This document shows positions 27,417 through 38,008 of a DNA stretch of 64,000 bases, in pieces. Numbering within the stretch: position 1 is the stretch's first letter; every line of letters starts with the position of its first letter. The translations under genes and the position numbers were made by a program. The DNA comes from a virus (lineage: Duplodnaviria; Caudoviricetes). The stretch lies in the IMG/VR virus record IMGVR_UViG_3300021387_000688; one strand, written 5' to 3'. Under the pieces are notes generated by a model. That model was given only the letters and a program-made list of their open reading frames with translations. It searched no databases and had not been told where the DNA came from.

Positions 27417-27446
27417 AATATAGGAGTTTTCAGGTTTAAGAATTTC
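27417..27446 (-). promoter_or_regulatory. Class A promoter GAAATT-N18-TATATT
   Basis: Exact motif and spacing. Confidence 0.7.
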
Positions 27447-28194
27447 TATCTTTTTTCACCAACTCATCCAAGTCAAATACTTTATAAGGGGAGTCGGGAT
27501 TGTCCCAGCAAATATTTTTATACATTTTAGGATCGACTACAAATTGTTCCCAATTCTTTTTGTGCTGTAAAGGTGGAACTTCCCTTCCAGAATCTTTGTA
27601 GGCTTTTCTTACCATTCTGTAATTTTCCAAATCCCAAGTAAAGTAAGATTCGTCAACGGGAATTTGATGGGTATGGCCATGGATGTTTATGAATTGAGAA
27701 TTCTTTTTTAAGAAAACAGGTTCGTGACTTAAGATAAAACTATCCTTGTAAAGAATTGGTCTATCATAAACTTTATCAAAACCAAGATATCTAAAAATAT
27801 CTTCCAAAGAAGAATTCTTGTCAAAAGGTTCAATTTTATCCCAATCCTCTTTCGATTTTCTAAAATGATTGAATTGACGATCATGGTTTCCAAGAACAAT
27901 ATTCAACTGACGGTAATTACCCTTCATTACATCAATGAAAGCTTTCAACTGATCGAGAGTACATTCTCCAAATAATTTACCGTAAAATAAATCCCCAAGA
28001 TTCCAAAGTATTACTCCTTTCTCATCTGGAATTTGCTTGTTAATTGAGTTTACAATATCCCAAGACATTTGTATAGATTTTTCATCATTAAAGGGGAGAT
28101 AATCTTTTCGTTCTGCGTATTTTATAATATTGCTATGAAGTAAGTGACTTACTTAATGTAAGTCAGAAGTAATATAATTTCTTTCTGACTGCAT
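27436..28194 (-). CDS. Calcineurin-like metallophosphoesterase interrupted by an in-frame TAA (candidate translational bypass)
   Basis: AGGAGG SD and ATG at 28194 give MQSERNYITSDLH*VSHLLHSNII, in frame with LGDL, GNHD, SHEP and HGHTH. Confidence 0.85.
28144..28165 (-). other. Candidate ribosome-bypass element: hairpin with the stop codon in its loop
   Basis: TGACTTAC-ATTAA-GTAAGTCA perfect 8-bp stem; CAT (28158-28156), TAA, GTA, AGT, CAC (28146-28144). Confidence 0.65.
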
Positions 28195-28281
28195 TTTTAT
28201 GTCCTCCTAAAATAATTAGCATAATTATATTATAGTATTTGATTATGTTAGTGTGTAACAAATGTTTGCACTAATTAAAGT

Positions 28282-29300
28282 ATGAATTACGAAAAAAATT
28301 ATTATGATTATGTAAATTATGTAAAAAACACCATGTTAAGCCTAGAAGTTTAGGAGGAGACAACTCTAAAGAAAATTTGATTTTACTTACAGCAAGAGAA
28401 CATTTTCTAGCACATTATTTACTTTGTAAATTTACAAAAGGAGAAGATAAAAAGAAAATGGTTTGGGCTTTCCATAGACTATGTTATTCGGATTCTTCTA
28501 ACCATATTAGAAAAGAAAATAATTTCAAAATGAGTAGTAAATTTTATGAATATTTAAGAAAAGAATTTGTTAAAATTTTTGAAAGTGAAGATTGGAAAAA
28601 AGCATGTAGTGAACGTAGTAAAGACAGGGTTTGGATAAACGACGGTAAAAACTCTAAAATGGTTAAGGATTTTGAATTAGATGATTTCTTAAAGGATGGC
28701 TGGACAGTCGGAAGAATTATGAATAAATCCAATTTAGGAAAGTATACACCTACAGAGGAGGAGAAAAAAAGAAAAGCATTAAAATTATCCATTAGAGGGA
28801 AAAACTCTGTTTGGGTCCACAATGATTTAGAAGACAGAATGATTCAAAAAGATCAATTAAAAGAATTTTTAGATAAAGGGTATTCAGAAGGTAGAACCCA
28901 TAAAAAGAAAGCATCTTCCAACGGTCAAATTGGTAAAATAGCTGTTTACAATCCTTTAACTGATGAGGAAAGGAGGATAGATAAGAAAGATTTAGAGATC
29001 TTTTTAAGTAAAGGTTTCATTAAGGGTAGAAGAAAAGCCAGTGAAGAAACTAAACAAAAAATGAGTAAGTCCCATACAGATCCGGATAGTAAATCCCAAA
29101 AATATTATCAAAGCCTTAGAAATGGTATTTCTAAAAGAAAACATTTCGAAGGTAAAATTGTACATAAAGATGGTATTTATAAAGGGGTTTCTTTGGAAGA
29201 GTTGGACACCTATTTATCTAAAGGGTGGCAAATAGGTGCCAGACCTAAATCAGAAGATTGGAAAAGAAAAGCCAGAGAAAGAAATCAAAAAAAGATTTAA
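28282..29300 (+). mobile_element. HNH homing endonuclease, frameshifted near the 5' end
   Basis: MNYEKNYYDYVNYVK then, in the -1 frame, KHHVKPRSLGGDNSKENLILLTAREHFLAH; four C-terminal ...FLxxG(W/Y/F)xxGR-type repeats and a SEETKQKMS NUMOD-like motif. Confidence 0.8.
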
Positions 29301-29302
29301 AA

Positions 29303-30569
29303 TTATTTTGTAACCTCCTGATTAGGTGAATGAGTAACATCATCTTCAAACATTCCAAAATGATTTAAGAACTTCCACCTCTTTTTAATAGAGAATCCTC
29401 TTGTCAATTTGTATTTAAGGGCTGCCCGAGATAATCTTAAATTATTAATAATTTCTCCTGCTTTTTTATTATCCTCTTCTTTTTGAGGATCGAGCCCGGC
29501 TGTAAGTCTACCACATTCATTTGCATAATCTAAAACAACTGTTGCAAAATTAACAAACATTCTTTGAGTAGAATTTAAGAAAGGAGTGGTTGCAATATCA
29601 TTAGGTTCTACCTGCCAGTAACACTCTGTAAGCATTCCCAATAATGTTTCGTAAAGCTTACGGTCTTTCTTAAATAAAAATTTTGGCGGATTGTTAAACC
29701 AATTTGCTTTCAATTCCAGCATTCCCTTTTCAAGCAAATCCATGTATTGCTGTTCCAGCCAATTGTATACTACAACTTCGTACATCATTATTTTATTTCT
29801 CCTCTTGCTTTATATTGAGATTCTGTTAAGCAATCTCTCTTTACAAAGTCTATATCTTTAGAATATTGATTCTTTTCTACCCACCGGATCATGGTACCAA
29901 AAGGTCTACTTACTGTACACTTTTCATAAAACTGCGAATTATCCTTATTAACATAATGCCAGAAAACTTCTTGGTTTTCATATTTGCAAACAGGTAGTAC
30001 TAGTTTTACATAAAGATCATCTTTTACATCTTTATTAAATTCGTTACTAAAAGTTTTGTAAGGGGCTACGTGGAATCCGTTTTCGGTATCTATATCTAAA
30101 AGTACATAGTATTCTTCTTTGTAAAGACTTTTAGTTAAATCAGCTTTAGTATTTCCTGCTAAGTAAATATCTCCAATTCTAGGAATCGCCCCTGTTTTGA
30201 AATCAAAAATCTTTGTAGAATCGTTTAAGTCAACATAATATAAATTCATTATTCAACTCCCCTTTCTTCGTTTAATTTTTTCATTTTATTTGTTAAAGGT
30301 TCAAAAAGCTTTCTTAAGCAATCAAAGATTAAGAAAATAAAAGCCATTACAAAATAAAGAGGACTGAATACCAAATTAAAGATTCCTTGAGATATTTCAT
30401 ATCTGTTGGTACGTTCATCCCAAAAGAAATCAGTCCATATTTCTTTGAATGGGGTTTCTTTTCCTTCTATATGGTCACTGAGCCAAAGCGTGCAAGCCAA
30501 TAGATAATAGAAGGCAGCTTCGACAACTACCCATAAAGTTATAAATGATACGATTTCAATAATATTCAT
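29303..30569 (-). CDS. Three hypothetical ORFs (29303-29788, 29788-30249, 30249-30569; the last is a membrane protein)
   Basis: Coupled ORFs; TATATT 6 nt before ATG 30569. Confidence 0.6.
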
Positions 30570-37614: not shown

Positions 37615-38008
37615 TGGAGATGCCGAGAATTGAACTCGGGTCCCATACAACCTTTTACAAATAAACTTCTATACAAGCTTAAGCTAGTTTTCGATTCGGG
37701 ATAGCTACCGGATTCTGCCCAAGTACGTGACTTTTACAAGCCACTTTCGTAAAGAGATACATGCTCTCGCTCCGCCTCTACTCTTTACTAGTCATCGCAA
37801 TCTTTCAAGTATATAAGCTATTGTGACTCGTTCACTTAAAACCCGCTAGAGCTCTGTTTTGGCTCTAGAACTTGAAATGGTGCTTACGCAACCATTGCCA
37901 AGTCTTCGTACTCTGTTTCGTCGTTTACTTACGGTGCTTTTAGGGTACACTAACCACTGTGCTTGATTTATCTGTTACTGAGTTGCAGGTCGAAACCTTT
38001 ACACCCCC
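37615..38008 (-). ncRNA. ssrA: tmRNA, predicted tag (A)DETEYEDLAMVA*
   Basis: 5' GGGGGTG pairs with 3' CATCTCC-A (G3-U alanine determinant); T-arm CCGAG-TTCAATT-CTCGG; helix 2 pairings; tag frame 37922-37884 preceded by TAAAC; CCA not encoded. Confidence 0.95.

Follow-up and report, generated by a model that had tools for sequence, protein, structure and literature searches.

The 50-nucleotide (nt) bypass of gene 60 in phage T4 reportedly lies within a MobA HNH homing-endonuclease element, as Bonocora et al. are said to have described in 2011, and what is understood of programmed bypass in phages and bacteria rests essentially on this one studied family, T4 gene 60/MobA. MobA elements are exclusive to Topo2L, their nuclease is progressively lost with T4's own copy a pseudogene, and the latest survey of them calls the cassette unique and exclusive to topoisomerase genes (Manning & Atkins, bioRxiv 10.1101/2022.08.31.505936). 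A passage of that survey (bioRxiv 10.1101/2022.08.31.505936) also cites two other kinds of hop, namely laboratory hops in E. coli over a slow-to-decode codon, in which 9 nt give one amino acid, and the byp inserts of Magnusiomyces capitatus mitochondria, 27-55 nt long. Here we analysed a stretch of 64,000 nt (the window) of a giant gut phage (Caudoviricetes record IMGVR_UViG_3300021387_000688), in which a gene for a calcineurin-like metallophosphoesterase (MPE) is interrupted by a 12-nt insert and stands back to back with a gene for an HNH homing endonuclease. We consider it likely that this locus is a homing cassette, with an insert that breaks the nuclease target in the MPE gene and does no harm because ribosomes bypass it. 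In a full-text literature search we found no paper describing such an MPE/HNH insert cassette.

The MPE gene lies on the minus strand, from an ATG at 28194 to a stop at 27436, with the Shine-Dalgarno (SD) sequence AGGAGG at 28208-28203 on the same strand. The opening frame ends after 13 codons, codon 14 being TAA, and past the insert the same frame resumes with LLHSNIIKYAER... (LLHSNIIKY...) for 235 codons. Read through, the product matches PF00149 (Metallophos) with 30.4 bits against a cut-off of 21.5, over residues 8-188 including the DxH motif, and it also matches phrog_547. A search of a large protein collection gave 177 relatives, the best of them 90% identical. The claim that an insert interrupts a phosphoesterase gene in its most conserved motif, SDLH, was borne out by an alignment with 28 homologues (47-91% identity), in which the four insert codons are unique to the window, follow directly on the His codon of the motif, and fall between the nearly invariant S10, D11 and H13 (S-D-x-H) and the invariant H20. 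Since the insert recurs in a contig from an independent sample (X3) and, as small variants, in five other assemblies, it is not an assembly artefact. Close relatives of the MPE gene were not found in deposited phage genomes by megablast or by tblastn with the MPE protein, and in IMG/VR a single-protein scan gave no match and a profile scan gave only relatives of at most 35% identity, uninspected for inserts or HNH genes.

The HNH gene was also found where it had been placed, on the opposite (plus) strand with its ATG at 28282, 88 nt from the start codon of the interrupted gene. It matches phrog_655 (homing endonuclease) at 5.7e-23, its best tblastn matches are T4-like Mob endonucleases, and PF01844 scores above cut-off in the relatives L050 and P0130 and below cut-off in the window copy. 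The features of the locus are collected in Table 1.

Table 1. Features of the interrupted MPE locus and its HNH gene, in coordinates of the window
Feature	Position	Strand	Remark
Mobile cassette, as delimited against the cassette-less locus L003	28138..29302		Identity profile
MPE 5' mini-ORF (open reading frame), 13 codons MQSERNYITSDLH	28156..28194	-	SD upstream
Putative take-off codon CAT (His13)	28158-28156	-	Last codon of the MPE mini-ORF
12-nt insert TAA GTA AGT CAC: stop, 6 nt, putative landing codon	28144..28155	-	
Putative landing codon CAC	28146-28144	-	First cognate triplet after take-off
Resumed MPE frame with the remaining metallophosphoesterase motifs	27436..28143	-	Profile match, alignment
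Predicted take-off hairpin, 8 base pairs (bp), UGACUUAC/GUAAGUCA, loop AUUAA holding the stop codon	28145..28165	-	Folding
Divergent intergenic region with sigma-70-like -35/-10 pairs for MPE and the SD	28195..28281		Cassette-borne
HNH 5' remnant, ATG and 22 codons, then TAG	28282..28353	+	Deletion junction inside
HNH main frame: HH...N...H, then about four repeats of 32 amino acids (aa), a modular DNA-binding tail	28308..29300	+	

We examined contigs encoding close HNH relatives and, from JGI metagenomes, a set of MPE loci picked without regard to HNH. Together they gave 17 insert-bearing sequences with five insert types, of 6, 12, 12, 32/34 and 37 nt, at the MPE motif site. Type A (the window, L001, L047, L048, L049 and L052/53) is the 12-nt TAR GTA AGT CAY after CAT; type B (L050/51, L131 and L132) follows CAY with 34 or 32 nt that start with TGA and end with CAY; type C (L057) has the same design in 37 nt, with four frame-0 stops; type D (L073) is a different 12 nt, starting with TAG and ending with CAT; and type E (L071, L074, L133-140, L141 and L142) has 6 nt placed one codon earlier, as CTT-stop-CTT with TGA, TAG or TAA as the stop. 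What these types share is simple. The first codon of the insert is a stop in 17/17, with TAA, TAG and TGA interchanging even within one type; the last codon is cognate to the codon before the insert, CAY to CAY or CTT to CTT, again in 17/17; and a decoy cognate triplet inside the gap was seen in none of the 17, the putative landing codon being the first cognate triplet. Moreover the inserts of types B and C (32, 34 and 37 nt) are not multiples of three and shift the frame, so that read-through cannot restore the protein and only skipping from take-off to landing does.

Three candidate explanations or signs were rejected along the way. Reassignment of a stop codon by the phage does not fit, as TAA, TAG and TGA all occupy the site and the neighbouring open reading frames are long under table 11. 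Re-initiation just past the stop would have to do without a conserved start codon, a TTG being there in L001 only. A truncated gene call from an internal Met turned out to be an unreliable sign of an insert, P0023/L002 being uninterrupted.

The co-occurrence of insert and HNH gene in related phages was as predicted. Both were present in 12 distinct loci, the HNH gene without the insert in none, the insert without the HNH gene in 5 and neither of them in about 22 (Fisher p 1.6e-6, uncorrected for relatedness), and in six phylogenetically independent pairs differing in HNH the insert never differed in the opposite direction. At least 10 changes of insert state are required on the MPE tree, and 7 of these fall on well-supported branches. 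Insert type also tracks HNH clade: type A is found with HNH genes of the 80-98% clade, type B with those of the 69-74% clade, and type E with those of the 41-46% clade, which stand in tandem upstream of the MPE gene. Two loci fetched later via more distant HNH relatives both carried the predicted 6-nt insert.

Comparison with L003 set the borders of the cassette. In L003 the stop of the upstream 161-aa gene overlaps the MPE ATG, and against it the cassette starts cleanly right after the stop of that gene; at the other end, divergence is raised from the MPE ATG to 28138, about 6 nt past the insert, and identity is about 97% from 28137 down. The intergenic region, in which the sigma-70-like -35/-10 pairs for MPE lie at 28257-28229 and 28251-28224 (minus strand), is conserved among cassette-bearing loci and absent from L003. 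A scaffold gap in L003, the closest cassette-less relative (L003:2839-2918), is flanked by about 75 nt of duplicated sequence; it is a scaffolding overlap with no DNA missing, so that no HNH gene is hidden in it.

Each MPE gene with a cassette has a closely matching twin without one. The MPE bodies of these twins are 96% (window/L003), 92% (L048/L055), 92% (L057/L056) and 89% (L052/L054) identical in nucleotides, whereas the window and L048, which both carry it, are 86% identical in HNH and 68% identical in the MPE body. The MPE bodies of L001 and L050 are 97% identical, starting 9 nt past the landing codon, yet the two loci carry different cassettes (12 versus 34 nt), with HNH genes 80% identical in nucleotides and 74% in protein. 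L141, which has the HNH gene, and L071, which lacks it, show no difference between the SD and the end of the insert although their MPE bodies have diverged, and L071 differs from its insert-less twin L069 only in the SD-to-insert arm. The co-occurrence, the cassette-plus and cassette-minus twins and the discordance between HNH and MPE identities support the proposal that insert and HNH gene form a mobile cassette; these sequences indicate that it is mobile, and its borders are what repair of a double-strand break near the motif, with co-conversion around the cut, should leave. The further proposal, that this is an independent example of the T4-like unit, is likewise supported, with the correction that the insert of the window belongs to a set of five types.

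None of the 17 interrupted alleles has lost its SD, its ATG or its conserved YITSDLH mini-ORF, and each has an intact frame of 216-244 codons downstream; in the six type A alleles YITSDLH shows only synonymous changes. The ratio of nonsynonymous to synonymous divergence (dN/dS) of MPE was 0.054 between the window and L049 (dS 0.56 in MPE and 0.59 in HNH), 0.027 between L050 and L131 (dS 1.08 in MPE and 0.87 in HNH) and 0.087 between the window and L003. Since in the two former pairs HNH has diverged about as much as the MPE bodies, the cassette was probably present throughout their divergence. The interrupted MPE genes are under purifying selection.

The RNA around the interruption is predicted to be structured. 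In the window the 3' arm of the take-off hairpin comes from the insert, and its folding energy of -9.2 kcal/mol (z -3.3) was reached by 0/200 shuffles, whereas the insert-less twin L003 has no structure at the same place (z +0.6). The codons of the 5' arm are TCT GAC TTA CAT in 6/6 type A alleles, despite HNH genes that differ at about half of their synonymous sites; 14 insert-less relatives have 12 different codon strings there, none of them TCT GAC TTA CAT, and within the type A insert variation is confined to the two unpaired positions. Types B and C fold into hairpins of 9-13 bp (z -4.1 to -5.4) whose 5' arm contains both the take-off codon and the stop. The five long inserts share a 12-bp helix in which 98% of positions pair and four pairs have changed on both sides, as against 27-57% pairing when the partners are slid. 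The take-off hairpin thus covaries. A separate hairpin was seen in L073, where 11 bp form upstream in the coding sequence (L073:1745-1790, -19.1 kcal/mol, z -6.4) with a 3' arm that ends one base inside the take-off codon; in this it is reminiscent of gene 60, where a 5' stem-loop has been proposed as the driver of forward movement.

The HNH gene of the window is a recent pseudogene. Its ATG frame ends after 23 codons and the catalytic frame is -1 relative to it, and the original prediction that this frame is broken therefore stood; the simple frame repair it suggested did not, as the cause is a 40-nt deletion rather than a 1-nt slip. The deletion, at 28328/28329, takes out 13 codons immediately ahead of the HH motif, throws the gene out of frame, and is absent from five intact relatives (L049, L048, L047, L001 and L050) and from X3, the contig from another sample of the same study, which differs from the window at 5/701 compared bases and carries the missing 40 nt together with the 12-nt MPE insert. 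The window gene is 82-87% identical in nucleotides to intact relatives of 352-363 aa, which are under purifying selection (dN/dS 0.08-0.25). We also considered a programmed -1 frameshift at A AAA AAC and rejected it, as this heptamer is a strain-level deletion junction; in the five relatives and X3 the HNH gene has a single frame and 40 more nt, and the slippery two-frame layout is not conserved.

Several stages of loss were represented among these loci, from the intact HNH gene (X3) to the 40-nt deletion (the window), to loss of the HNH open reading frame with promoter and insert kept (X6), and at the furthest to the SD-to-insert arm alone (L052/53 and L071). The window is thus a decay stage of the homing-endonuclease life cycle, in which the nuclease has just died and the insert persists. 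X6, a contig from bovine gut, joins window position 28251 to the end of the 161-aa gene, with 28252-29317 cleanly deleted including the HNH open reading frame, and retains the cassette promoter region and the 12-nt insert.

When the locus is set beside T4 gene 60 and MobA, the likenesses are several. In both, a Mob-type HNH gene adjoins a gene whose conserved region holds an untranslatable insert, the take-off and landing codons are matched, a stop follows the take-off codon, and the take-off codon lies in the 5' arm of a hairpin; in T4 gene 60, which we folded for comparison, GGA-UAG lies in a 10-bp hairpin with a tetraloop. Like MobA, the MPE cassette has multiple independent insertions with near-identical insert-less twins, and in both the nuclease is lost and the insert kept, the nuclease being a pseudogene in T4 as well as in the window. 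In contrast, the target is MPE here and Topo2L in MobA, the predicted take-off codon is His CAY or Leu CUU and not Gly GGA, and the gaps span 6-37 nt as opposed to 50 nt. Take-off in MPE would come at codon 12-16, with neither a nascent-peptide extension nor an SD-like arrestor; the MPE gene is not split and the cassette lies upstream of it, whereas MobA splits Topo2L with CTE/NTE extensions; and no sequence similarity is evident between the inserts of the two systems. Since target gene, codons, gap length and cassette position differ, the MPE cassette is an analogue of the MobA element and not a member of it.

Two other kinds of described hop bear comparison. The 6-nt type, CTT-stop-CTT, has exactly the layout of the laboratory hops, and the 12-nt His-His arrangement of the window is slightly longer; those hops, however, are of low efficiency in synthetic or mutant sequences, whereas the MPE arrangement is natural, conserved in a selected gene and HNH-linked. 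The Magnusiomyces byps, as the passage that cites them presents them, likewise interrupt essential coding regions with short inserts that form hairpins, and bypass again runs between matched codons, but they are described there as autonomous, GC-cluster-like, present in many genes and having an unassigned sense codon after take-off. The MPE inserts, unlike them, occupy one site in one gene, have stop codons and are linked to HNH.

In the favoured reading, a free-standing Mob-like HNH cassette would have inserted between the 161-aa gene and the MPE gene, bringing a promoter, an SD, a replacement MPE 5' end and an insert after the His (or Leu) codon of SDLH. The intact nuclease would cut or nick insert-less MPE alleles of co-infecting phages near the SDLH motif, repair would copy the cassette plus a flanking arm into the cut allele, and in cassette-bearing DNA the insert would break up the nuclease target and so give immunity. 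In translation, where a stop codon would fill the A site and a hairpin engage the take-off codon, the peptidyl-tRNA-His would leave CAU and re-pair with the first downstream CAY, 12 nt on in the window, to give SDLH-LLHSNII. We infer the bypass itself, that is take-off and landing, from sequence features, and the nuclease target and the immunity conferred by the insert from the precedent of MobA and gene 60.

A number of observations weigh against this reading. The peptide made before take-off (codon 12-16, codon 13 in the window) has 12-16 residues and matches that of insert-less alleles; it lacks a dedicated extension, nothing in it corresponds to the nascent-peptide signal of gene 60, and peptidyl-tRNAs with so short a chain readily drop off. 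The insert-borne hairpin is absent from the 6-nt type E and the 12-nt type D, and no SD-like (A)GAG(A) was seen some 6 nt 5' to the landing codon in the gaps read, where the only candidate is an AAG(G) that immediately precedes this codon in the long types. The sign test on the six pairs differing in HNH is only borderline (median p 0.06), and in pairs other than window-L049 and L050-L131 part of the MPE divergence may predate the arrival of the cassette, which weakens some of the dN/dS argument. Finally, L057 differs from L056 by a bare 37-nt insert with identical flanks and no HNH gene in the 240 nt available, so that an insert can occur or persist without the nuclease.

This last pair also bears on one of four rival explanations, in which the inserts are autonomous mini mobile elements, like the Magnusiomyces byps, that favour this site, the HNH gene being unrelated and having another target. 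A clean 37-nt insertion between identical flanks with no HNH gene nearby would suit such an element, as would the five alleles that have the insert and lack the HNH gene, but insert type tracks HNH clade and HNH loci have the insert in 12/12. Moreover the HNH-less L071 and L052 keep the cassette SD and 5' arm, identical to those of HNH-bearing relatives, and are therefore deletion or partial-conversion derivatives; and a pattern scan of IMG/VR for the 12-nt insert type gave one match in all, a chance one in GC-rich DNA outside MPE. We regard this explanation as very improbable, and hold the same of removal of the insert from the mRNA, whether as a micro-intron or through editing by an endonuclease plus ligase at the hairpin. 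The hairpin does present the insert, and T4-like and giant phages encode RNA repair enzymes; against this, we know of no splicing system that removes 6-37 nt, the 6-nt type has no insert-borne structure, and between types only the stop and the matched codons are conserved, both of which are translational features.

The two remaining rivals concern the fate of the stop, and we give them slightly more weight, though both are unlikely. If the insert inactivated a dispensable MPE, as a scar or immunity mark of the cassette with no full-length protein made, the in-frame stop that truncates the product after 13 codons, the internal starts chosen by the gene caller in several relatives and the frequent dispensability of accessory genes in giant phages would all be accommodated. 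What makes this improbable is that the intact downstream frame, SD, ATG and mini-ORF are kept in 17/17 interrupted alleles, that dN/dS is 0.03-0.05 in the pairs that diverged together with the cassette, and that a stop and a matched landing codon, needless for a scar, are conserved across five types. A shade less probable again is read-through of the 12- and 6-nt inserts by a suppressor tRNA or near-cognate decoding, adding 2-4 extra residues, with another mechanism needed for the long types. These two inserts do keep the frame, huge gut phages often carry suppressor tRNAs, and only 64 kilobases (kb) of the genome are visible; but no tRNA gene was found within the 64-kb window, homologous cassettes have frame-shifting inserts of 32-37 nt at the same site, a single insert type includes TAA, TAG and TGA, reading through the 6-nt type would change DxH to DxxxH, and landing and take-off codons are cognate in every case, a match for which read-through has no use. 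Each of these rivals explains part of the data and not the combination of stop identity, matched codons, frame-shifting inserts, selection and clade-specific types.

Other observations were made at or near the locus. A second, different Mob-like HNH gene stands at the 3' end of MPE in some relatives (L001:2487-3632, L047:1262-1450 and L057:1152-2107), where the MPE gene has an alternative C-terminus after HGHTHQ and a remnant of the ordinary C-terminal coding region lies downstream of that HNH gene; the MPE gene thus looks like a hotspot shared by two independent homing cassettes. The word CTAATTA occurs shortly upstream of both divergent starts in the window, at 28213-28219 (minus strand) and 28271-28277 (plus strand), and is conserved there in cassette relatives; it is not enriched in the window (11 found versus 24 expected) and, the word being under-represented overall, may be a phage regulatory motif. 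A phage tmRNA was called by ARAGORN at 37615-38008 (minus strand), with the tag DETEYEDLAMVA. For annotation the consequence is practical, since gene callers truncated or mis-started the MPE genes in every assembly examined.

Beyond the favoured reading of the cassette as a homing element with a bypassed insert, a broader one can be put forward, on which we judge the case to be evenly balanced. Giant gut phages would carry a family of HNH cassettes in which a ribosome-hop insert serves as the immunity determinant and has diversified at one codon into forms of 6, 12, 32, 34 and 37 nt; ribosomes would take off from a His or Leu codon at position 12-16 with almost no nascent peptide. Rival variants that swap on one backbone, as in L001 versus L050, would suggest an arms race that selects the length and shape of the insert for escape from the nucleases of competing variants. 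If the bypass is real, the MPE cassette would be a second, non-homologous bypass system, with the same logic in another gene, with other tRNAs and much shorter gaps. Its natural variants are at hand, with five gap types, compensatory changes in the hairpin, three stop codons and insert-plus and insert-minus twins, and they make testable what the minimum for a ribosome hop is, whether a nascent-peptide signal is dispensable, and whether homing endonucleases generally use bypass to mark conserved catalytic motifs.

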